The translations under genes were made by a program, and so were the position numbers. DNA of 64,000 nucleotides, from contig CANQTM010000004.1 of assembly GCA_947626825.1 (NCBI GenBank), forward strand, positions 10,074-74,073, read 5' to 3'. A model generated the notes under the pieces. The model searched no databases. It was not told the DNA's origin and saw nothing but the letters and a program-made list of their open reading frames with translations. The stretch comes from an uncultured Bacilli bacterium. GTDB lineage: Bacteria; Bacillota_I; Bacilli_A; RFN20; CAG-631. Below are positions 1,470-27,373 of the stretch, piece after piece (the stretch's first letter is position 1; every line of letters begins with the position of its first letter).

Positions 1470-3428
1470 TCAATTGTTTCCTTCATCATTATTTGTTTTA
1501 TTCATTTGCAAACCATTTTTAAATGCTTCTATTGTTGTTGGAAGATGTTCTGGTTCTAAACTATATTGATTAGTAACTTCATTTTTTGAATTATAATCAT
1601 TTACAGAAAACCAAACAGCACCTTTAATGTTTTTTACAATATCTGAACGTTCTGCAAATTCTTGAAACATACCAGTAACATATCTAGTTTGGCTATCTTG
1701 ATTTCTATAAAGTTTTCCTGTCGCCGTTCCTCCAGCACCACAACCAAATTCAGAAATTATCCAAGGATATTTATTCCAAACAGGATTATTTTTTATATAT
1801 AATTCAGTATAGTCTTCTCTAAATGTCCAAAGCCCAACTGTATTAGAATTATTATCTTCATAATATGTTAAACCTAAAGCTTGTACATAATCATTACCTG
1901 GAAAATAGCTTAAGTCTTCACCCCAAGCACTATATGGACAACTTCTAGCCATTGGATTAAAAATCCAAATAGTGTTGTTTACACCTTGTTCTTGTAAAAA
2001 GTTATATAAATAACGCCATGTGGCTTGGAAAATATCAGGATCTAATAAAGTCATCATCCCACAATAACTTGTCCAATCGGTATTCATTTCGTTATTTAAT
2101 CTAAATAATACTGGTTTACCATAAGCCTTTAAACCATTAGCTAAATTTTTAAACGCAGTATCAATAATGTTTCTTTTATCAAATAACACATCGCCACCTG
2201 GATCTGGACCTCTTAATATATCAAACATTGGTGTATAACAATCTAAAGTGTTTTCAGCAGAAACAAAATTGTTGTTATCTGTAAATTGATACGAGAATTG
2301 TAAAACAGGTAAACCATTAAAACCATTACCACCAGCAGTTGCATTAGCACCACCTAAAGCAAATTCACTATAACGTCCATGATATGAAATATGTTGATAA
2401 GTTGGTATGATATCAAAGTCATAATCCATTGCTGTTGATAATTTGTTTAATTTTTGTTTTAAATCAGTTGGTTTATCAATATTTGTGACATACATACCCC
2501 AATCAGTGCGATCTTGATTACACAACTTTTCAAAATAGTTTTTTGTTTCTTCACTCCAATTAGGATTTTCTTTCAATTCCATGTTATCAAGTTGATTTTT
2601 AGCAACACCTGCTGTAGTATCTAAAACTTCAAATGATTGAATCATTTCAACAAAATCATCACTACGATCATGTGTTGATTTCATTACAAATAAATAAAAT
2701 TCATTGCCTTTAAAATTAAATTCATTTCTTACTACACCAATATTATAAAACATTTTACGAATATTTCCTGGATCATTAATATAAATAGGAATAATTGTAA
2801 CAATATAATTTTCTAATATTTTATTACTTTCAAAAATAGGATCAAAAGATGTTGGCGTATAATATAAATTATTATCATGTAAATATTCTTCATTCATTAC
2901 ATATCTTAACAACCATTCATCACGATAAGTAATCCAACTTGAATAAGGATTTTTTGTTTCTTTTGAAACAGTTAAAGTTGTTTCAGTATTATATAAACGA
3001 TTTCTATATGCTGCTACTTTAAAATCTGCTTTAAAAGTACTATCTGTTTTTAAATTAAAAGCATATCCATCAGATCGGTTTACAAAACGCATATATTCAT
3101 CATTATAAAATAAATATTTAGCATCATCATTTTCAGTAATTTGTCCATCTTTTAAAGTTGGTGTTAGAACATTATTTTTATATAATTCTTGATATTTGAT
3201 ATTAGGAAAATGACCAAAAAGATCTTCTTCATACATTGGTTCATAATCACTTGCTGCATGAATACTATCTAATTTTTTTAAACCATCATAATATTCATTA
3301 AAAAGAATGTCATCTTCAACTTTAGGATCATCTTGATTAGATATTGATGTTTCATTGTCATCACATGAAGTGCAAGAAATACTTAATATAATGGCAAATA
3401 ATGGTAACAAAAATTTTTTCTTTTTCAT
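1470..3428 (-). CDS. Secreted lipoprotein, putative clan GH-A glycoside hydrolase (GH26/GH113 mannanase-like)
   Basis: Lipobox signal MKKKKFLLPLFAIILSISCTSC. NEM motif (LFRLNNEMNTDW) and WIISEFG segment resemble the acid/base and nucleophile strands of clan GH-A enzymes. The family assignment is by eye only. Confidence 0.45.
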   Translation of the reverse strand: MKKKKFLLPLFAIILSISCTSCDDNETSISNQDDPKVEDDILFNEYYDGLKKLDSIHAASDYEPMYEEDLFGHFPNIKYQELYKNNVLTPTLKDGQITENDDAKYLFYNDEYMRFVNRSDGYAFNLKTDSTFKADFKVAAYRNRLYNTETTLTVSKETKNPYSSWITYRDEWLLRYVMNEEYLHDNNLYYTPTSFDPIFESNKILENYIVTIIPIYINDPGNIRKMFYNIGVVRNEFNFKGNEFYLFVMKSTHDRSDDFVEMIQSFEVLDTTAGVAKNQLDNMELKENPNWSEETKNYFEKLCNQDRTDWGMYVTNIDKPTDLKQKLNKLSTAMDYDFDIIPTYQHISYHGRYSEFALGGANATAGGNGFNGLPVLQFSYQFTDNNNFVSAENTLDCYTPMFDILRGPDPGGDVLFDKRNIIDTAFKNLANGLKAYGKPVLFRLNNEMNTDWTSYCGMMTLLDPDIFQATWRYLYNFLQEQGVNNTIWIFNPMARSCPYSAWGEDLSYFPGNDYVQALGLTYYEDNNSNTVGLWTFREDYTELYIKNNPVWNKYPWIISEFGCGAGGTATGKLYRNQDSQTRYVTGMFQEFAERSDIVKNIKGAVWFSVNDYNSKNEVTNQYSLEPEHLPTTIEAFKNGLQMNKTNNDEGNN

Positions 3429-3443
3429 TTTGTCTTGGCCCCT

Positions 3444-4253
3444 TTATTTATTGTTTTTTAAATCATTTAAAATATCTTGTTTTCTTTGAAGATATTCATC
3501 TTCACTAATTTTATTATTTGAATATAATTTTTCAAGATTTGCTAATGCTTCATAAGCAGATTCTAATTTAGAATTATCAACTATATTATTATTATTTTCA
3601 GTTTCATTATTTATTGGTTCATTATTTTGTTCAATACTAACTGAATCATCTTTTATAGTTAAATTTTCTTCATTGTTATTAACGAAATTATTTTGAACTG
3701 GTTGATAATTATTTGATTGTGGTCTTATTGGCATGGCAATTGATTTTTGAAAAGTTACATGATTTACAATATATAATATTGTGCCAATTAAACCAACAAT
3801 TGAAATAATTGAATACATAACACTAATTAAATCATTTGATAAGTCAGATGAAAGATTAAAAGTTATTAACAAATAATTAATTACTAAAAATACAATTAAT
3901 GTTATATGAATTTTGTTTTTACGTTTATATGTTAATTTGTCTAAACTATAATCTTTAAAATTCAATAAAGTAAAGATAAAGACTAAAACTGATGTAATAA
4001 ATGAAAGAATTAATTGTATTAAGTTAAATAGATACATCAGTGTTGATAACTGAGCAATAGTCTCATCATTTAAAAAACTAATATCAACATTTAAATTATT
4101 TAACATATCTTTATATGTTCCAATAAATAAATCAAATGCATTTTTAAAAGCATTAGGACTAGCTAATGTTATTAAAGAATAAATTATCAAAATAATACTG
4201 ACACTTGAAAATATTAAATTCAATATATTACTTATTTTTAGGCCTTTATTCAT
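3444..4253 (-). CDS. Membrane protein with four predicted TM helices and a C-terminal SHOCT domain
   Basis: Hydrophobic segments in the N-terminal 170 aa. C-terminus LESAYEALANLEKLYSNNKISEDEYLQRKQDILNDL matches the SHOCT short C-terminal motif. Confidence 0.5.
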   Translation of the reverse strand: MNKGLKISNILNLIFSSVSIILIIYSLITLASPNAFKNAFDLFIGTYKDMLNNLNVDISFLNDETIAQLSTLMYLFNLIQLILSFITSVLVFIFTLLNFKDYSLDKLTYKRKNKIHITLIVFLVINYLLITFNLSSDLSNDLISVMYSIISIVGLIGTILYIVNHVTFQKSIAMPIRPQSNNYQPVQNNFVNNNEENLTIKDDSVSIEQNNEPINNETENNNNIVDNSKLESAYEALANLEKLYSNNKISEDEYLQRKQDILNDLKNNK

Positions 4254-6147: not shown

Positions 6148-6221
6148 GCAGGTATAGTTTAACGGTAAAATGCGTGCTTCCCAAGCTCGAAATGGGGTTT
6201 CGACTACCCTTACCTGCTCCA
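6148..6221 (+). tRNA. tRNA, folded manually as tRNA-Gly with anticodon CCC
   Basis: 74-nt cloverleaf: acceptor GCAGGTA/TACCTGC, D arm GTTT-AACGGTA-AAAT, anticodon arm CGTGC-TTCCCAA-GCTCG with one T.T mismatch, T arm GGGGT-TTCGACT-ACCCT, discriminator T plus encoded CCA. Upstream TGATAAAAT extended -10 at about 6126. Confidence 0.65.
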
Positions 6222-6310
6222 ATGGTATACCCTAACAGATTGATACAATGTGTCAGTCTGTTTTTTATAAAGTTTGACTATCAACATCTATGTGGTTTTA
6301 AAGAAAAATA

Positions 6311-6354
6311 GGTCTTAGAAAGTGCAAAAGTTGCATTTTCTAGGGCCTTTTTTG
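6311..6354 (+). terminator. Rho-independent terminator downstream of the tRNA
   Basis: Near-perfect hairpin GGTCTTAGAAAGTGCAA-aag-TTGCATTTTCTAGGGCC followed by TTTTTT. Confidence 0.5.
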
Positions 6355-6403
6355 ATGTCTTAAATCAGGGTGTCGACGATAGGGGGACGATAGGAGATGA
6401 TAG

Positions 6404-6704
6404 ATGATGAGCTTTCAATAAAAGGATCACAAATGCAAGAACAGAAGGATTTAATAATTTAGTAAAAGTAATAAAAAGAAGTGGGTATGGATATACTAAT
6501 TTCAAAAGATTTAGAAATAGAATTTTACATATTCAAAAAAAGGTTTTAAATTAAAAAATTTATAAAATTTAAGCATTCTATTTGCGGTTGTCTTATCAAA
6601 AAAGAAGCAGGTATTTTGTCTATTTGCTTCTTTTCATAAACCCCATGATTTTGAAGAGCTTTTTTTGAAAACCCCACGCAAACCCCACTTTTTCGAGGTG
6701 AGCC
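6404..6704 (+). mobile_element. 3'-terminal remnant of an ISL3-family insertion sequence (transposase C-terminus plus right inverted repeat)
   Basis: Frame at 6411-6554 encodes AFNKRITNARTEGFNNLVKVIKRSGYGYTNFKRFRNRILHIQKKVLN*, characteristic of ISL3 transposase C-termini, preceded by in-frame stops. The reverse complement of 6650-6704 reads GGCTCACCTCGAAAAAGTGGGGTTTGCGTGGGGTTTTC, an ISL3-type terminal IR. No 5' part is present. Confidence 0.55.
6411..6554 (+). pseudogene. ISL3 transposase gene fragment (last ~47 codons only)
   Basis: See the mobile_element entry; in-frame TGA TGA immediately upstream, no start codon. Confidence 0.55.
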
Positions 6705-6926
6705 TAAAAAATTAGGTGCGACTAATAAGTCAATAAGTCGTTAGAAAATAGAAAGTGCTTACTAGATGTGGTTTTATATAAAGATTTATGTAATATTTTA
6801 GACATTACTTTAAATAGATTTTTTCTTTAATAATGTTCTTTTTATATCTTTTTACATATTTTGATTAAAGAAAAAGCACCTATCTTTTTTCGATAGATGC
6901 ATCATATTTTACACTAATTCGTTGTA

Positions 6927-8141
6927 TTACCAATTTTCCATAAGTAAAAAATCAACAATATGTACCACTTTAATTCCATTAATATTTTGCACATCGTTAC
7001 GATTTGTGGTCACCACATATTTATGATTAAAATCATTAATTGAACTTAAATTTTTTATTTCCCTTTCAGAATTATCTGGCAAGCTAACTGTTGCTTGGAT
7101 TTGAATTTCATCATCTTTTCTTTTTGCAACAAAATCTATTTCTTTATCATTATTTTTACCTACATAAACTTCATATCCTCGCCTTTTAAGTTCAAGATAA
7201 ATGATGTTTTCAAGTATAGAAGCATCCATTTTCTTGTTGTAACCAAATATGGCAAAGCGCAGTGATATATCAGAAAGATAATATTTTTCTTGTGTTTTGA
7301 GAATAGACTTTCCTTGTAAATCATATCTATTACATTCATAGATTATAAACGAATCCTTAAGCCAAGTAATATAGTTATATACTGCTTCAACCGAAATTTC
7401 TTTATGTTGTTCTTTTAAATATTTAGCTATTGAATTTGCAGAAAATGTTTTACCCATATTGTCCATTAGATACTTAACAACTCTATTAAATTTTTCAACA
7501 TCCTTTATTGGATGATTACTTAACACATCTTTTGTTATTATAGAATAATATATATCTTCTACAATCTGATATGCATTTTGAAAATTAAGTTTAGAAGTAG
7601 CAATCAATGGAAAGCCACCAAATTTAACATATTCTCTATATGCTTCATCCAAGTCATCATTGCCTATTTTTTTAAATTTTAGATATTCCTTAAATGAAAG
7701 CGTATATGTGGGCACAAGAACATATCTTCTTGACAAATAAGATGAAATATGTTCACTAGTCAATTTAGAGTTTGAACCAGTTACAAAAATATCTACATTA
7801 CAAGTTTCAAATAGTGAGTTTATTGCTTGTTCCCACCCTTCTATTTCTTGAACTTCATCTAGTAAAAGATAATATTTTTCTTTATCTTGTATTTGATTTT
7901 TAAGTTCATTATACATATCTTTTTTTGTATAACCATCATCAACTTCAACACTAGTGAACAACCTATAAATAATATGGTTAAGGTTTATACCATTTATTAG
8001 TAGTTCATCACCTATCATATCCAAAATGTAAGATTTACCACTTCTTCGTACACCGACAATTATTTTAACAATATTGACATTAATAAATGGTCTAATATAA
8101 TCTAAATAATCTTGTCTGACTATTAAATCGTTTTTAAGCAT
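6927..8141 (-). CDS. AAA+ ATPase, AAA_14 plus DUF4143 (COG1373-like), paralog A
   Basis: Walker A GVRRSGKSYIL, Walker B YLLLDEVQ, C-terminal EIDFVAKR...IQIQAT DUF4143 segment. Start chosen at internal ATG (MLKNDLIV) with AGAGGTG RBS; the track start is GTG at 8153. Confidence 0.75.
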   Translation of the reverse strand: MLKNDLIVRQDYLDYIRPFINVNIVKIIVGVRRSGKSYILDMIGDELLINGINLNHIIYRLFTSVEVDDGYTKKDMYNELKNQIQDKEKYYLLLDEVQEIEGWEQAINSLFETCNVDIFVTGSNSKLTSEHISSYLSRRYVLVPTYTLSFKEYLKFKKIGNDDLDEAYREYVKFGGFPLIATSKLNFQNAYQIVEDIYYSIITKDVLSNHPIKDVEKFNRVVKYLMDNMGKTFSANSIAKYLKEQHKEISVEAVYNYITWLKDSFIIYECNRYDLQGKSILKTQEKYYLSDISLRFAIFGYNKKMDASILENIIYLELKRRGYEVYVGKNNDKEIDFVAKRKDDEIQIQATVSLPDNSEREIKNLSSINDFNHKYVVTTNRNDVQNINGIKVVHIVDFLLMENW

Positions 8142-8375
8142 AGCATAACCCACCTCTCATTTATTTATTATTATAGAATTTTACTAAACAAGTTTTAAGC
8201 AGTTAAAACAAAAAACATATCAAATTTATTTAACTTTTTTGTTTTTAAACCAAAAAACTTTATAATGATATTATAGTATTATTTAATGTTTTCATACAAT
8301 TTGACAATAAAATTGGTAAATTTATCAAAAGTAGAAATCTTTATTGACAATGTTATAGGAAAAATAGTAAAAATT

Positions 8376-8469
8376 GAAGTTTTCGGCTTTTTGTAATAAA
8401 AACAATTTGAAATTTTCGGCATTTTGTCATGTATAAAACTTGTAATTATCGGCAACACATGATATAATG
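8376..8469 (+). repeat. Three tandem ~34-bp degenerate direct repeats (core TTTTCGGC / TATCGGC) in the divergent promoter region between paralogs A and B
   Basis: gaagTTTTCGGCtttttgtaataaaaa, gaaaTTTTCGGCattttgtcatgtataaaa and gtaatTATCGGCaacacatgatataatg. The third unit contains an extended -10 TGATATAAT about 25 nt upstream of the paralog B RBS AGGAGG. Confidence 0.5.
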
Positions 8470-8492
8470 TTACCAAAAATAGGAGGTTTAAA

Positions 8493-9833
8493 ATGACCAA
8501 AAGAATTTTTGAACGTAAAATTTATCAAAAAATGTTAGATTGGAAAAGAGATTCTAATGGTAAAACTGCTCTTTTGATAAAAGGTGCGAGGCGTGTTGGC
8601 AAGTCTACCATTGCAGAAGAATTTGCTAAAAAAGAATATTCTAGTTATATTCTTATTGATTTTTCTATTGTTTCTAAGGAAGTACATAATTTGTTTAAAG
8701 ATTTGTCTGATTTGAATTATTTGTTTTTACGCCTTCAATTAATTTATCACGTTAATTTAGAAAATAGAAAATCAGTTATTATATTTGATGAAGTCCAAAG
8801 AGAACCTTTTGCTAGACAAGCAATTAAACATTTGGTTAAAGATGGAAGATATGATTATATTGAAACTGGTTCACTATTATCAATAAAAAAGAATGTTAAA
8901 AATATTGTTATTCCAAGTGAAGAAACTAGAATTGAAATGATACCTATGGATTATGAGGAGTTCCGTTGGGCACTTGGAGATAAAGCAACAATACCGATGT
9001 TGAGATTTGCTTTTGAAAATAAAAAATCTTTAAGTGATGATGTCAATCGAAGAATGATGCGTGATTTTAGACTGTATATGTTAGTTGGTGGAATGCCGCA
9101 AGCTGTGAATGAATATCTTGATACAAACAATTTTAGCAAAGTAGATCAGGTGAAACGCTCTATTTTAGAACTTTATCAAGATGATTTTAGAAAAATTGAT
9201 TCTACTGGAAGAGCATCATTAATGTTTTCTGCTATTCCATCAGAACTTGCAAAAAATGCGTCAAGATATCAAGTGTCAAGTGTCATTGCAAATGGAAAAA
9301 ATGATCGTGTACTTGAAATTATTGCAGATATGAAAGATTCTTTGACTGTTAATATTGCATATCATGCAAATAATCCGAGTGCAGGAATGTCTTTACATGA
9401 AGACACTGCTAGATATAAAATGTTTCTTAGCGATACTGGTTTGTTTACTACACTTGCATTTATGGATAAAGATTTCACCGAAAATGTTATCTATGAAAAA
9501 CTTTTAAATGACAAACTTGATACTGATTTAGGATATTTGTATGAAAATATAGTTGCACAAATGCTTTATGCAACAGGAAACAAATTATTTTACTACACAT
9601 TTCCTAAAGAAAATTCGAGTCATAACTACGAAATTGATTTTTTGATTGCTAAAAGAAATAAGATATCACCTATTGAGGTAAAATCATCAGGATACAAAAC
9701 ACATAGATCAATTGATGCCTTCGTTAATAAATTTTCAGATAAAATAGGGCAAAGATATTTGGTTTATACAAAGGATTTAAGAAAAGATGGCGAATTACTT
9801 TGCATACCAATTTATATGACAATGTTTCTATAA
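8493..9833 (+). CDS. AAA+ ATPase, AAA_14 plus DUF4143 (COG1373-like), paralog B
   Basis: Walker A GARRVGKSTIA, Walker B IIFDEVQ, C-terminal EIDFLIAKRNKISPIEVKSSG (D...E-x-K-like). Strong RBS AGGAGGT. Confidence 0.75.
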   Translation: MTKRIFERKIYQKMLDWKRDSNGKTALLIKGARRVGKSTIAEEFAKKEYSSYILIDFSIVSKEVHNLFKDLSDLNYLFLRLQLIYHVNLENRKSVIIFDEVQREPFARQAIKHLVKDGRYDYIETGSLLSIKKNVKNIVIPSEETRIEMIPMDYEEFRWALGDKATIPMLRFAFENKKSLSDDVNRRMMRDFRLYMLVGGMPQAVNEYLDTNNFSKVDQVKRSILELYQDDFRKIDSTGRASLMFSAIPSELAKNASRYQVSSVIANGKNDRVLEIIADMKDSLTVNIAYHANNPSAGMSLHEDTARYKMFLSDTGLFTTLAFMDKDFTENVIYEKLLNDKLDTDLGYLYENIVAQMLYATGNKLFYYTFPKENSSHNYEIDFLIAKRNKISPIEVKSSGYKTHRSIDAFVNKFSDKIGQRYLVYTKDLRKDGELLCIPIYMTMFL

Positions 9834-9895: not shown

Positions 9896-9914
9896 TACTC
9901 AAAAACAAGTTATT

Positions 9915-9955
9915 TCGTAAAAAGATGGTAAACCGCAAAAATATTAAATAAGAGT
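9915..9955. repeat. Degenerate copy of the 38-bp palindromic repeat
   Basis: ggtaaaccgcaaaaatattaaataag aligns with the right half of the intact repeat (gggtacacgcaaaaaattaacataaa); the left half has decayed. Confidence 0.35.
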
Positions 9956-10082: not shown

Positions 10083-11354
10083 GTGATTAAAAGAGATTTT
10101 TATTTAAAACAAATCATTGAAAGAATGTGGAATGGAAATATCAAAGTTATAACTGGAATTAGACGCGGAGGAAAATCAACACTTCTTTTTAATTTATTTA
10201 AAGAATATTTACTTTCAACTGGAGTTAGTGAAAATCACATAATAGAAATTGAACTTGATAAACGAAAATTTTATAAATTTAGAGACCCAATTTTTCTTTG
10301 TGACTATGTTGAAAACATCGTTAATGAAGGAAAAAATGATAAATATTATCTTTTAATCGATGAAGTTCAACTTACAAAAAAAGTCAAGGATAAAGCAAGT
10401 GATATAGAAGTAAGCATATACGATATGTTAAATGAGTTAAAGGCATATCCAAATCTTGATTGTTATGTTACAAGTTGTAATTCAAAAATGCTTTCAAGCG
10501 ATATTGCTACAGAATTTCGTGGAAGATCAAGTCAAATAAAAGTGTATCCATTTTCTTTTGAAGAATTTTATTCTTATAGAGGTGGTGGTGTAAGTGAAGC
10601 ATTAGATGAATATATGCTTTATGGTGGTATGCCAGGACTTATCAATGAATCGACTGAGGAACAAAAACGAACATATCTAAAAAATCTTTATGATGAGATT
10701 TATATAAAAGATTTAGTCGAGCACGCAAGAGTGCAAAGACAAGATGTTTTAGAAGAATTGTTAGATTATTTAGCATCTTCTATAGGTTCCTTAACAAACG
10801 CCAATAAAATTACAAGCGCTATTAACACAAAAGCATCAAGTAAAATATCTGATGATACTATAGCAAAATATCTTAAACATACAATGGATGCATTCCTTAT
10901 TTTTGAGGCAAGAAGATATGATGTGAAAGGCAAAAAATATTTTGATTATCCAAATAAATATTATTATTCTGATGTTGGACTTAGGAATATTAGATTAAAC
11001 TATCGCCAAATTGATTCTGGATACATTATGGAAAATATGATTTATAATGAGCTTATAAGACGAGGATATTCTGTTGATGTAGGAGTAGTCGAAGATAGAA
11101 GTAATAATAATAAAAAAATAAAAGAGATAGATTTTGTAGTTAATAATTTTGATAAAAAAATTTATATTCAATCTGCGTTTAGAATAGATGATCAAAAAAA
11201 GAAGGAAAAGGAACTTGATTCTTTAAAACTTACAGCAGATTTCTTTAAAAAAATAGTGATAAGAAATGATATACCAACAACTTTTTATGATGATGATGGA
11301 ATAATGCATTGTAGATTCATTGATTTTTTATTGAATAACGTTGAATTATTTTAA
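10083..11354 (+). CDS. AAA+ ATPase, AAA_14 plus DUF4143 (COG1373-like), paralog C; GTG start
   Basis: Walker A GIRRGGKSTLL, Walker B LLIDEVQ, C-terminal EIDFVVNNFDKKIYIQSA. RBS AGGAGGG 8 nt before GTG. Confidence 0.75.
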   Translation: MIKRDFYLKQIIERMWNGNIKVITGIRRGGKSTLLFNLFKEYLLSTGVSENHIIEIELDKRKFYKFRDPIFLCDYVENIVNEGKNDKYYLLIDEVQLTKKVKDKASDIEVSIYDMLNELKAYPNLDCYVTSCNSKMLSSDIATEFRGRSSQIKVYPFSFEEFYSYRGGGVSEALDEYMLYGGMPGLINESTEEQKRTYLKNLYDEIYIKDLVEHARVQRQDVLEELLDYLASSIGSLTNANKITSAINTKASSKISDDTIAKYLKHTMDAFLIFEARRYDVKGKKYFDYPNKYYYSDVGLRNIRLNYRQIDSGYIMENMIYNELIRRGYSVDVGVVEDRSNNNKKIKEIDFVVNNFDKKIYIQSAFRIDDQKKKEKELDSLKLTADFFKKIVIRNDIPTTFYDDDGIMHCRFIDFLLNNVELF

Positions 11355-11436: not shown

Positions 11437-11536
11437 TTGCATATTTAAATTAAATAAAATATTTTTGTTGTATTTTTTTAAAAAATTTAAAGCAACAAAA
11501 TAATAATGAAATGCATTTAAATATAATTATATTTCA

Positions 11537-11575
11537 ATGTTAAAAAAATTGCGGGTACACGCAAAAAATTAACAT
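11537..11575. repeat. 38-bp nested palindromic repeat, copy 1
   Basis: ATGTTAAaaaaaTTGCGggtacacCGCAAaaaaTTAACAT: outer arms ATGTTAA/TTAACAT and inner arms TTGCG/CGCAA with A-tract spacers. Confidence 0.7.
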
Positions 11576-11673
11576 AAAGGCTAATATAATTATTTGAAAT
11601 TGATAATTTTTATTGTAAAATTATTTTGAAATGCAATTTTTGACAGCGTTTTTTTTAAAAATATAATATTTTT

Positions 11674-11711
11674 ATGTTAAAAAAATGCGGGTACACGCAA
11701 AAAATTAACAT
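11674..11711. repeat. 38-bp nested palindromic repeat, copy 2 (about 10 bp upstream of the paralog D -35)
   Basis: ATGTTAAAAAAATGCGGGTACACGCAAAAAATTAACAT. Followed by promoter TTGCAA-16-TATAAT at about 11722-11750 and RBS GGAGGTG. Confidence 0.7.
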
Positions 11712-11774
11712 AAACGCGTTGCAAATTTTATTTTTTTTACTATAATAAAGATAGAAACAATTGGAGGTGTTTTT

Positions 11775-13028
11775 ATGATTTTCCCCAGAAAGAAGAATTT
11801 AGATCAATTAATTAAACATCAAAACAATGGATTAATAAAAATTATTACTGGTTTACGTCGTTCTGGTAAATCATATCTTTTAGATCCAATTTTTAAAAAA
11901 TATTTATTAGAAACTGGTATTAAAGAAGATCATATTATTAAATTCGATTTGGAAAAACAATTGAATAGTAAATATTGGGATCCTAATGAATTAGCAAAAT
12001 ATTTGGAATCATGTATTGTTGACAAAGATAAATATTATTTTTTATTAGATGAAATTCAACTAGTAAAAGGTTTTGAATTTGTTTTAAATGGATTGTTGCA
12101 CATTCCTAATGTAGATGTTTATGTTACAGGAAGCAATTCAAAATTTTTATCATCAGATATTATCAGTGAATTTAGAGGTAGAGGTGATGAAATTAAAGTA
12201 TTTCCACTAACATTTTCTGAATATTATGAATGCGTTGGTGGCAATAAACATGAAGCATTGATAAGTTATATGCATTATGGTGGCCTTCCTCAATGCGCAT
12301 CTATAGATGATCTTGAAGTAAAGCAACATTATTTAGTTGGACTTTATAAAACTATTTATCTTGCTGATTTAAAACAAAGACATCGTATTAAGGAAATGGA
12401 AGTGTTTGACAATCTTTTAGAAATTCTTTCTTCGGATATTGGTTCATTTACTAATTTTAAAAAATTATCAAACACATTTAAAACTGTATTGAATGTTAAT
12501 GTAAGTTTTAATACTATCAAAAGATATTGTGAATATTTAGAAGATGCATTTTTAATCAATCAAGCAAAAAGATATGATATTAAAGGAAAAAAATACATTG
12601 CTTCTTTAAAAAAAATATATTTTACAGATTTAGGTATTCGTAATGCTTTAATTGGTTTTCGCCAATATGAAGTTTCTCATTTAATGGAAAATCTTATCTA
12701 TAATGAATTGTGTTATCGTGGTTTTAGTGTTGATTTAGGAATTGTTATAAAAAACGCTAGTGATAAAAATAAAGGAAATATAAGAAATTATTTTGAAGTT
12801 GATTTTGTAGCTAATAAAGGATATAAAAGATATTACATTCAATCAGCATTGATTATTCCTGATGCCAAGAAAATGGCACAAGAAGAAAAATCATTAGATT
12901 GTATTTCTGATAATTTTCAAAAAATAATAATTGTTTATGATGATTTTGTAACCTATCATCAAAATGAAAAAGGCTATATTATGATGAATCTTATAGAATT
13001 TTTAGAACATCCTGAATATATAAACTAA
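11775..13028 (+). CDS. AAA+ ATPase, AAA_14 plus DUF4143 (COG1373-like), paralog D
   Basis: Walker A GLRRSGKSYLL, Walker B FLLDEIQ, C-terminal EVDFVANKGYKRYYIQSA. Confidence 0.75.
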   Translation: MIFPRKKNLDQLIKHQNNGLIKIITGLRRSGKSYLLDPIFKKYLLETGIKEDHIIKFDLEKQLNSKYWDPNELAKYLESCIVDKDKYYFLLDEIQLVKGFEFVLNGLLHIPNVDVYVTGSNSKFLSSDIISEFRGRGDEIKVFPLTFSEYYECVGGNKHEALISYMHYGGLPQCASIDDLEVKQHYLVGLYKTIYLADLKQRHRIKEMEVFDNLLEILSSDIGSFTNFKKLSNTFKTVLNVNVSFNTIKRYCEYLEDAFLINQAKRYDIKGKKYIASLKKIYFTDLGIRNALIGFRQYEVSHLMENLIYNELCYRGFSVDLGIVIKNASDKNKGNIRNYFEVDFVANKGYKRYYIQSALIIPDAKKMAQEEKSLDCISDNFQKIIIVYDDFVTYHQNEKGYIMMNLIEFLEHPEYIN

Positions 13029-13049
13029 AATAATTTGAATAATATTTTA

Positions 13050-13086
13050 ATGTTAAAAAATTGCGTGTATCCGCAATAAATTAACA
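13050..13086. repeat. 38-bp nested palindromic repeat, copy 3 (21 bp after the paralog D stop)
   Basis: ATGTTAAAAAATTGCGTGTATCCGCAATAAATTAACAT. Arms conserved, centre diverged. Confidence 0.65.
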
Positions 13087-13244
13087 TAGCATCTTCTCAA
13101 TTCATCACTTTAAAGACTTGCTTTACACTTTTATTAATGTCATTTTTATTTAAATTGTTCATTTTCAATATATTTAAACATATTGATGTTTTTTTATTTT
13201 GTGGTATAATGTAAGAAAAGTAAGAAAAATATGGAGAGATATTC

Positions 13245-27119: not shown

Positions 27120-27373
27120 AATAACACCTCCATTAAATAACATTTTAGACTCGCCAGTGAGGTGGATAATTCACTTAAAACCTTTTTTGAGCGGTTGTAC
27201 CCCAAATGTAAAAGGTGCAACACATGTATTTTAGCAAACTACAAATGCCAATGTCAAGAAAAATTACTCATTTCATTCTTAATGTTCTACGAACATTTTG
27301 AGGTTGTTTAAATATTTCATATTTAATTTATTCAATATTTTAATTATTTTTTTCATTTAAAATTAAATATACA

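Follow-up and report, generated by a model that had tools for sequence, protein, structure and literature searches.

The 64,000-nt stretch of DNA analysed here, called the window in the following, comes from an uncultured Bacilli bacterium (assembly GCA_947626825.1, contig CANQTM010000004.1, positions 10,074 to 74,073) and has a G+C content of ~25%. Within it, three direct copies of a nested palindrome lie before and after the gene for an ATPase, here called D, which belongs to a candidate anti-phage defence family and is the last of four paralogs (A-D) in an array. These palindromes are the local form of a conserved stem-loop element that frames genes of the D clade. The features around D are the following, all on the forward strand:

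Positions 11527-11578: copy 1 of the palindrome, core 11537-11575 (39 nt), reading ATGTTAA-A5-TTGCG-GGTACA-CGCAA-A4-TTAACAT.
Positions 11640-11667: promoter P1, TTGACA-16-TATAAT, 12/12 matches to the consensus.
Positions 11664-11714: copy 2, core 11674-11711 (38 nt), corresponding to about +1 to +38 of P1.
Positions 11719-11746: promoter-like site P2, TTGCAA-16-TATAAT, followed by the ribosome-binding site (RBS) GGAGG at 11763-11767.
Positions 11775-13028: gene for ATPase D, with AAA_14 and DUF4143, assigned to the PADLOC candidate defence family PDC-S01.
Positions 13040-13090: copy 3, core 13050-13087 (38 nt), in the same orientation as copies 1 and 2.

A first-pass annotation of this DNA had described three intact copies built of two nested inverted repeats. 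All three exist, the third ending at 13087 and not at 13086, and each folds as a nested stem-loop with an outer stem of 7-10 bp, an inner stem of 4-6 bp and a loop of 6 nt. The inner arms TTGCG/CGCAA, which lack one T in copy 2 and thus become TGCG/CGCA, are separated by these 6 nt, instead of the 7 nt given before. Between the two stems lies an internal loop of about 5 x 4 A residues, the A-runs being not self-complementary, as had been stated. The repeat is in fact ~50 nt long, as ~10 nt upstream of the core (ATAATATTTTW) are common to the copies, which share 85-95% of their DNA sequence. Folding z-scores of the copies range from -3.8 to -4.0 for RNA and from -2.6 to -4.3 for DNA. The pattern ATGTTAA-N18-30-TTAACAT has three matches in the window against 0.10 expected, a number reached by 0/100 shuffles, and in a profile built from the copies each scores E ~1e-14, with the next same-strand score in the 64 kb no better than E = 0.29. 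The element is a specific cis element and not a chance similarity of AT-rich DNA, a concern that had been raised together with the first description. Searches against Rfam 15 at gathering and at permissive thresholds returned no family at the elements of the window or of four loci introduced below (L046, L078, L086, L108), and no publication describing the flanking element was found in the literature. A reading as a short peptide, MLKKLRVHAKN, was rejected because its frame is not maintained between the copies. Likenesses to BirA, PrfA, cre and dif sites were likewise rejected for unfitting spacing or half-sites.

The order in the window is copy 1, P1, copy 2, P2, D and copy 3. Copy 1 lies downstream of a hairpin and T-run that belong to the preceding gene C, and 64 nt upstream of the -35 box of P1. 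P1, which had been overlooked before, is located inside the 98-nt spacer that separates copies 1 and 2. A gap of 6 nt lies between the end of its -10 box and copy 2, and the predicted transcript would therefore begin at the very start of copy 2. The -35 box of P2 follows copy 2 at a distance of 7 nt, in accordance with the earlier placement of this copy just upstream of the box, and copy 3 begins 21 nt after the stop codon (TAA) of D, as had also been reported. The P1 spacer is homologous in the related loci L013 and L008, and P2 is kept in L013 and approximately in L014; P1, P2 or both may be active promoters of D, as judged from their sequences. The palindromes had been said to bracket the ATPase genes as a group. 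Only D is flanked, copies 1 and 2 lying between C and D.

In a scan of one genome per species, covering 185,579 species, 12 loci matched the palindrome pattern, and the palindrome is real in only two of them, both from uncultured rabbit-gut Bacilli with one locus each (L006, L008); the other 10 are unrelated perfect hairpins that fit the pattern by chance. L006 contains three copies at a spacing of 137 nt, and L008 contains two copies ~137 nt apart without D. Copies 1 and 2 of the window are likewise 137 nt apart, and the intervening DNA is homologous among the window, L006 and L008. In L013, which encodes a D ortholog with 95% identity, the order is C, copy, copy, D; there is no copy after D, and synteny with the window stops ~20 nt past the stop codon, where copy 3 begins in the window. 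In L014-L017, with a D ortholog of 76% identity, one copy precedes the D promoter and one follows directly after the stop codon. The neighbours in these loci, a type I restriction locus and a tyrosine recombinase upstream and a NUDIX gene downstream, are unrelated to those of the window, and no homology to the window was found outside the copies. Among eleven distinct copies, the outer arms, the A-runs and the TGCG/CGCA stem are invariant, and the 6-nt loop occurs in eight versions; 3/6 loop positions differ between the two copies that flank D, both in the window and in L014. No copy was found in ~150 kb of DNA from further relatives or in the relatives retrieved with the neighbouring ABC ATPase (L019-L033), the latter indicating that copy 3 is not part of the mazE-ABC operon downstream of D. 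A BLAST search with the C-D intergenic region against plasmids and phages returned no palindrome and only generic promoter/RBS similarity to Staphylococcus bacteriocin genes, and a strict element pattern had 0 matches in JGI metagenomes and IMG/VR. With few copies in relatives and none in the plasmid and phage collections, the element is low-copy and not a dispersed repeat.

Several further differences were seen among these relatives. In L013, the loop of copy 2 (1819-1835) is the exact reverse complement of its counterpart in the window (GGTACA vs TGTACC) within conserved flanks, and that of copy 1 (1685-1699 vs window 11549-11564) is the reverse complement with one additional change (GGTACA vs TGTATC), as if the loop had been turned round between its inner arms. 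The ~98-nt spacer of the window (11576-11673) matches L006 (611-921) only when inverted relative to the palindrome core, with a score of 46 that 1/1000 dinucleotide shuffles reach, against a noise-level score of 24 in the same orientation; to judge by this alignment, the spacer suggests an inversion bounded by the outer arms. An invertible promoter was rejected, the promoter not being conserved in L006, and the inversion is kept as a side observation only. About 110 nt of the 3' end of a Fic gene are duplicated beyond the three-copy array of L006 (400-515 vs 1060-1175). In L014, the NUDIX gene (2911-3474) is called from the ATG of the palindrome, giving 187 aa compared with 150-153 aa in relatives; its true start lies ~105 nt downstream, past a TGCTACAAT promoter, and the call is an annotation artefact caused by the element. 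Downstream of D in L013, the place of the mazE-ABC operon is taken by a gene with SLFN_AlbA_2 and HATPase_c_4, preceded at 3700-3830 by four TTGCAACGAT / ATCGTTGCA repeats.

Presence and absence of the unit could be compared directly in a more distant group. Positions 1-636 of L048/L053 align to positions 779-1413 of L097 with 91% identity, and positions 601-1242 align to positions 2813-3454 with 90% identity. The two blocks overlap within a single copy of the element, the junction lying exactly in it. A unit of 1.4 kb, consisting of the promoter, the second copy, the gene and one further copy, is found in L097 and five relatives but missing from L048/L053. Since the empty site joins both flanks in one copy, the gene behaves as a cassette delimited by the repeats, and with six occupied relatives against one empty site, loss is the simpler reading. 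Other states are found in the rabbit-gut lineage, where L008 has two copies and the spacer without D, L006 has three tandem units, and L013 is missing copy 3. The copies thus delimit a unit that is subject to loss. The earlier description of D as cassette-like is borne out by this distant empty site and by the orthologs that are flanked likewise in a second context. A corresponding search for an empty site in the context of L014, made via its NUDIX neighbour, returned as the only close contig one that starts 38 nt upstream of the gene.

The same architecture occurs in distant lineages. A scan of public metagenomes with a pattern of the core only (AAAAA-N1-2-TGCG-N6-CGCAAAAAATT) yielded 52 loci. 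In five of them (L041, L043, L046, L078, L086; 41-52% G+C), the core is followed after 8-93 nt by a D-clade ATPase gene whose product is 46-49% identical to D (phmmer E 1e-130 to 1e-142), and in 4/5 a complete second copy is found 73-78 nt off, the pair straddling the promoter region. At L078, element, TTGACG-17-TATAAT, element and ATG succeed each other in this order. At L046, the beginning of a second copy is seen just past the -10 box of the promoter, and a variant copy follows directly after the stop codon. At a sixth locus, L075, the element precedes a truncated ATPase remnant.

A further 80 IMG/VR loci were fetched through protein similarity alone and not through the motif. In these, an A-run, a GC hairpin and an A-run succeed each other on the sense strand 13 times in 17 kb upstream of the gene, three times in 9.5 kb downstream of it and three times in 289 kb elsewhere, and on the antisense strand three times in the 316 kb of the whole loci. 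The positions are fixed at about -105 and -28 from the start codon and +13 past the stop codon. L108 illustrates the complete layout: element, 5 nt, TTGACT-17-TGgTATAAT, 6 nt, element, GGAGG, ATG and, after the stop codon, element and intrinsic terminator. A motif-agnostic comparison of the flanks revealed the same layout with other element sequences, such as GAAGTTCGGACGGTTTCGTCC in L128-L154, and further lineages with their own element sequences are represented by L093, L111, L119, L121, L153, L157 and L158. In all, a pair of copies flanking the promoter is present at P1 of the window and in L078, L046, L108, L097, L113, L121, L131, L153, L157 and L119. This recurring layout around D-clade genes makes the palindromes of the window one instance of a general arrangement. 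At one IMG/VR contig of 41.6 kb (IMGVR_UViG_3300045988_104411), inverted copies of a single ATPase locus are located at both ends (L139, L141). Solo cores with well-paired outer arms and no ATPase gene nearby were seen at L067 2307-2334, L076 3471-3497, L059 4698-4749 and L061 4404-4453; two of them are enclosed by convergent housekeeping genes, another has an AbiEii gene beside it, and the remaining one is located upstream of a bpMoxR AAA ATPase gene. These solo copies could be scars, landing sites or unrelated hairpins.

Comparison of the lineages separates what is kept in sequence from what is kept in structure. The core, consisting of A-run, TGCG, loop, CGCA and A-run, is conserved in sequence across lineages, and the outer arms differ yet remain complementary, as in ATGTTAA/TTAACAT, TGAAA/TTTCA, CTGAA/TTCAG, CCGAA/TTCGG, CGAGAA/TTCTCG and CATTT/AAATG. 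In a model-based alignment of 50 distinct copies, which is fitted to the structure so that the numbers lean towards it, all five pairs of the outer helix show changes on both sides and the inner helix is invariant. Outer-helix cells are paired in 97% of cases, compared with 25-57% when the partner column is slid, and a covariation score of 0.181 was obtained, compared with 0.054 ± 0.009 for shuffles, 0/500 of which reach this value. The differences between the arms are nevertheless plain in the raw sequences; even within the single locus L046, copies have different arms that each pair (CTGGAA/TTCAG, CATGA/TCATG). The distances are flexible, with a TGCG-to-CGCA gap of 5 or 6 nt, hairpin loops of 3-6 nt, A-runs of 3-6 nt and outer arms of 3-10 bp. 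In all copies, the A-runs are on the sense strand of the gene, and in several lineages copy 2 has a longer outer stem, in which CCTC pairs with the GGAGG of the ribosome-binding site. Covarying arms, a free loop, variable spacing and strand bias favour a folded strand over a rigid duplex site. The copy that always lies upstream of the promoter indicates a role on DNA as well and argues against a purely RNA-based role. A nested stem-loop, conserved and strand-specific, forms an integral component of the PDC-S01 gene units of the D clade.

The protein encoded in these units is a widespread, uncharacterised candidate anti-phage ATPase. PDC-S01 is reported to rank fourth in frequency among the candidate defence systems of prokaryotes, with validation pending (PMC12988326), and DUF4143 has been placed in the PD-(D/E)xK nuclease superfamily (PMC3424549). 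In a structure model of D (pLDDT 89.8), an AAA+ domain is followed by a winged-helix region at about residues 205-285, with three helices and a beta-hairpin, and by a PD-(D/E)xK-like C-terminal domain of mixed alpha/beta structure. The best solved neighbours of the model are the archaeal AAA+ ATPase SSO1545 and DNA-bound Orc1/Cdc6, followed by Apaf-1/CED-4-type NTPases; a sequence search of the PDB with D returned no match, and an exact-sequence look-up of the window proteins D, C and the ABC ATPase returned no record.

With moderate confidence, the element is proposed to provide the recognition sites, as DNA and/or as folded RNA, by which the ATPase of the cassette controls its own promoter. 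In a complete gene unit, three direct copies are located before the promoter, at the transcription start and just past the stop codon, and all follow one plan, in which the outer stem is free in sequence, the A-rich runs are unpaired, the inner stem is TGCG/CGCA and the loop is free. The core would be recognized by the only protein that travels with the element, the AAA+ ATPase encoded in the cassette, which is Orc1/Cdc6-like and combines a winged helix with a PD-(D/E)xK nuclease-like domain; that further lineages keep the layout while their element sequences differ fits a recognition partner that is encoded inside the cassette. Occupied copies flanking the promoter may hold it down in an autoregulatory manner and thereby restrain a potentially harmful nuclease. 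The transcribed copies would fold as hairpins in the 5'- and 3'-untranslated regions (UTRs), possibly adding control at the RNA level. As direct repeats, the copies are also points of deletion and duplication, so that loss or multiplication of the promoter unit or of the whole gene would be a by-product.

The binding partner, the active form (DNA or RNA) and the direction of regulation are those that we infer for this circuit, and several observations weigh against it. Linkage to the element is what points to D as the putative partner. The exact core occurs in only 7/80 IMG/VR loci, several of which are interrelated, so that the independent lineages are modest in number, and the solo copies in L059, L061, L067 and L076 lie away from any ATPase gene. 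The copy after the stop codon is not obviously needed for a regulatory role. Copy 1 of the window is 64 nt away from the -35 box, compared with 5-10 nt in other lineages; P2 lies between copy 2 and D; and L014 has only one upstream copy. Finally, the variable loop and A-run length are unusual for a B-DNA site read by a dimer, and the fixed half-site spacing expected of such a site is not found. A dimeric protein binding site had been one of the first suggestions; a simple two-fold dimer site on B-DNA fits poorly with loops of 3-6 nt, A-runs of 3-6 nt and arms that vary with pairing kept.

A different role for the copies, as true recombination sites of a small mobile defence cassette, is somewhat unlikely. 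The sites would be att-like, maybe acting as a folded single strand like attC, and a unit of promoter and gene would excise or insert between copies with the help of a host recombinase or of the cassette's own ATPase-nuclease. The joining of the L097 flanks inside one copy in L048/L053, the direct copies around D in two unrelated contexts with homology ending at the element, the varying number of units (two copies without D in L008, three in L006) and the solo copies at other loci all agree with this, as does the strand-specific structure with its unpaired central region and free loop. The tyrosine recombinase gene lies immediately upstream in L014/L015; however, it is fused or adjacent to an hsdS fragment of the type I restriction locus, and among the open reading frames (ORFs) of the 64-kb window no homolog of a tyrosine or serine recombinase was detected (best E 0.08). 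Direct repeats of 32-50 bp can be deleted without a dedicated enzyme, and the six occupied loci of the L097 group against one empty site suggest loss and not insertion. The difference at 3/6 loop positions between the copies flanking D, in the window as in L014, does not fit a recent exchange across the loop, and the precise bracketing of the promoter by two copies is left unexplained. A likeness to Xer/dif sites may be seen in TTATGTTAAA, which would resemble the XerD arm, and in the 6-nt centre; the arm sequences differ between lineages. A more specific version, in which the copies are folded-strand recombination sites of a hitherto unrecognized type of minimal mobile defence cassette whose single encoded ATPase-nuclease recognizes the stem-loops around its gene and catalyses or directs excision and insertion at solo copies, is distinctly improbable and the most speculative form of the idea. 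If true, it would explain the abundance, multi-copy habit and wide transfer of PDC-S01/COG1373.

An action at the RNA level only, with hairpins in the 5' and 3' UTRs that set stability or translation of the ATPase mRNA or restrain the nuclease like a cis-encoded antitoxin RNA, is unlikely. It would account for the confinement of the A-runs to the sense strand in all copies, the covarying stems with free loop length and the RNA folding z-scores of -3.8 to -4.0. In most lineages copy 2 starts 4-8 nt past the -10 box, which makes the hairpin 5'-terminal; the pairing of CCTC in its outer stem with GGAGG in several lineages and the position of copy 3 between stop codon and terminator in L097 and L108 point in the same direction. 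In every lineage, however, copy 1 lies upstream of the promoter, and in the window, where it is located past the terminator-like hairpin of C, it is not obviously transcribed. The downstream copy follows the terminator in L131 and L153. Conservation of the primary sequence of the core across phyla suggests that sequence is read over and above shape alone.

The copies are very unlikely to serve as terminators or insulators on the antisense strand, where a short GC hairpin with a T-run would block antisense transcription into the ATPase gene. A terminator scan passes only the antisense (minus) strand of copies 1 and 3, the hairpin being followed by A-runs on the sense strand, in agreement with the earlier view that the palindromes are not terminators of the adjacent genes. 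In L008 and L006, this antisense orientation follows convergent genes (one formate/nitrite transporter-like, one Fic), and L061 is arranged alike. Against this, no converging gene is present in the window, in L013, in L014 or in any IMG/VR locus, and the bracketing of the promoter, the conserved outer stem and the fixed positions would be unexplained.

The two options put forward in the first-pass annotation, a shared operator for A-D or duplication units of gene plus palindrome by which the array was built, involve the remaining paralogs and a supposed decayed copy between B and C:

Positions 6927-8153, reverse strand: gene for ATPase A, AAA_14 and DUF4143, match to PDC-S01.
Positions 8493-9833: gene for ATPase B, AAA_14 and DUF4143, match to PDC-S01.
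Positions 9909-9952, forward strand: solo copy of a sister element, ATTTCGTAAAAAGATGGTAAACCGCAAAAATATTAAAT, between the terminator of B and the promoter region of C.
Positions 10083-11354: gene for ATPase C, AAA_14 and DUF4143, match to PDC-S01.

Both options have become extremely improbable, although the elements do cluster inside the paralog array. The promoter regions of A, B and C have no copy of the palindrome, and with the copy profile and the flank comparison nothing comparable was found to flank these genes; B carries its own TTTTCGGC-type repeats, distinct from the palindromes of D, and other paralogs likewise have their own, different upstream repeats. Protein identity among the paralogs is just 32-44%, compared with a DNA identity of 85-95% among the palindromes, which are therefore not relics of the duplications that formed the array. 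In addition, the architecture moves with D alone to another genomic context.

The copy profile did not pick up the supposed decayed copy (9915-9955), even with the threshold set to E <= 100. Instead, the stretch at 9912-9942 matches a different conserved element of the form ATTTCGTAAAAAG-NCGGTAAACCGC-AAAAATTCTAAATG at E = 4e-10. This element is located directly upstream of the RBS of an orthologous ATPase pair (82% identical) in L006 and L026, and L006 has a second copy downstream of the ATPase operon. Its plan is like that of the palindrome, a short GC hairpin being set between two A-runs and the ends being weakly complementary. Conservation upstream of an orthologous gene pair in two genomes identifies it as a sister variant and not as a decayed copy. 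In L006, the ATPase operon has a duplicated stretch on either side (1195-1275 vs 3050-3170), made up of the 3' end of a DUF4926 gene and the sister element. As a whole, the earlier observation is partly confirmed, and its interpretation partly supported.

A generic selfish or neutral intergenic repeat of the repetitive extragenic palindrome (REP)/BIME or miniature inverted-repeat transposable element (MITE) type, which a short imperfect palindrome in intergenic and sometimes tandem position could resemble, is scarcely credible, considering that the three copies are confined to a segment of 1.55 kb, with none in the remaining 62 kb of the window, that two related species genomes have one locus each and ~150 kb from relatives none, that no copy turned up in phage and plasmid collections or in strict metagenome scans, and that the element keeps fixed positions and a tight linkage to a single gene clade.

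Other features of the locus concern the paralogs and their surroundings. Upstream of B (8340-8470), a TTTTCGGCNTTTTGT-like motif occurs three times, the last copy within the spacer of the B promoter (TTGTAA-17-TATAAT). Among PDC-S01 paralogs of related loci, the one in L026 is preceded by a palindrome GTGTCACAAATTC...GAATTTGTGACAC and the one in L021 by three CACAAATGTGTG-like repeats; no flanking direct repeats were found for ATPases A and B or for the ATPase genes of L018, L021 and L026. Beside a tRNA-Gly(CCC) gene (6148-6221), the region 6250-6900 contains no ORF of at least 60 aa, and its translation resembles what is left of the C-terminus of a transposase. This stretch and the four PDC-S01 genes mark a small variable island adjoining the tRNA gene. 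A ribosomal protein L21 leader (RF00559, 49.9 bits) at 27137-27206 on the reverse strand, upstream of the L21/L27 operon, is an ordinary feature.

For PDC-S01 (COG1373), the element offers a first concrete handle in the form of a probable ligand or recognition site and a predicted regulatory circuit. It also gives defined boundaries of the cassette and an explanation for gene loss at these loci. As a simple sequence signature, it can be used for annotating PDC-S01 cassettes, the mis-started NUDIX gene in one relative being an example.

Several known systems share parts of this arrangement. With attC sites of integrons, the element has in common the imperfect nested palindromes with unpaired centre and free terminal loop, a structure conserved above the sequence, one special strand, and direct repeats that flank single genes in occupied and empty states, here L097 vs L048/L053. 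The attC consensus has the inverse core RYYYAAC at the 5' end and the core GTTRRRY at the 3' end. This RYYYAAC/GTTRRRY core is absent here; the arms ATGTTAA ... TTAACAT have GTT and AAC on their outer sides, which gives the opposite order, and arms of other lineages (TGAAA/TTTCA, CTGAA/TTCAG) are unrelated in sequence. The conserved parts of the present element are instead the inner stem and the A-runs, its length is 32-38 nt compared with ~55-140 nt for attC, there is no IntI integrase nearby, and the cassette has its own promoter bracketed by two copies. REP/BIME sequences of enterobacteria are likewise imperfect intergenic palindromes of ~35-40 nt, often 3' of genes, sometimes clustered and possibly forming mRNA hairpins, but REP elements occur in hundreds of scattered copies tied to RAYT transposases, whereas the present element is low-copy and associated with one gene clade. 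In type III toxin-antitoxin systems (ToxI), a repeated structured sequence is also co-transcribed with a nuclease-type defence gene; there, ~36-nt units are packed tightly in tandem upstream of the toxin gene, in contrast to the single copies found here, which are dispersed before the promoter and at the 5' and 3' ends. Archaeal Orc1/Cdc6 proteins resemble D in having an AAA+ domain followed by a winged helix, and their repeated recognition elements adjoin the gene of the binder, which is putative in the case of D. The present system differs in that it has no sign of a replication origin, an extra PD-(D/E)xK-like domain and direct repeats that frame the gene. Paired operators such as gal OE/OI and lac O1/O3 and the autoregulated operators of defence and toxin-antitoxin systems lack the third copy after the gene, the unfixed internal spacing and the stem-like covariation of the arms, and the binder of the present element is putative only. 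Like the element at D, however, they consist of two identical sites around the -35/-10 region, one of them over the transcription start, and they are linked to a potentially toxic gene.

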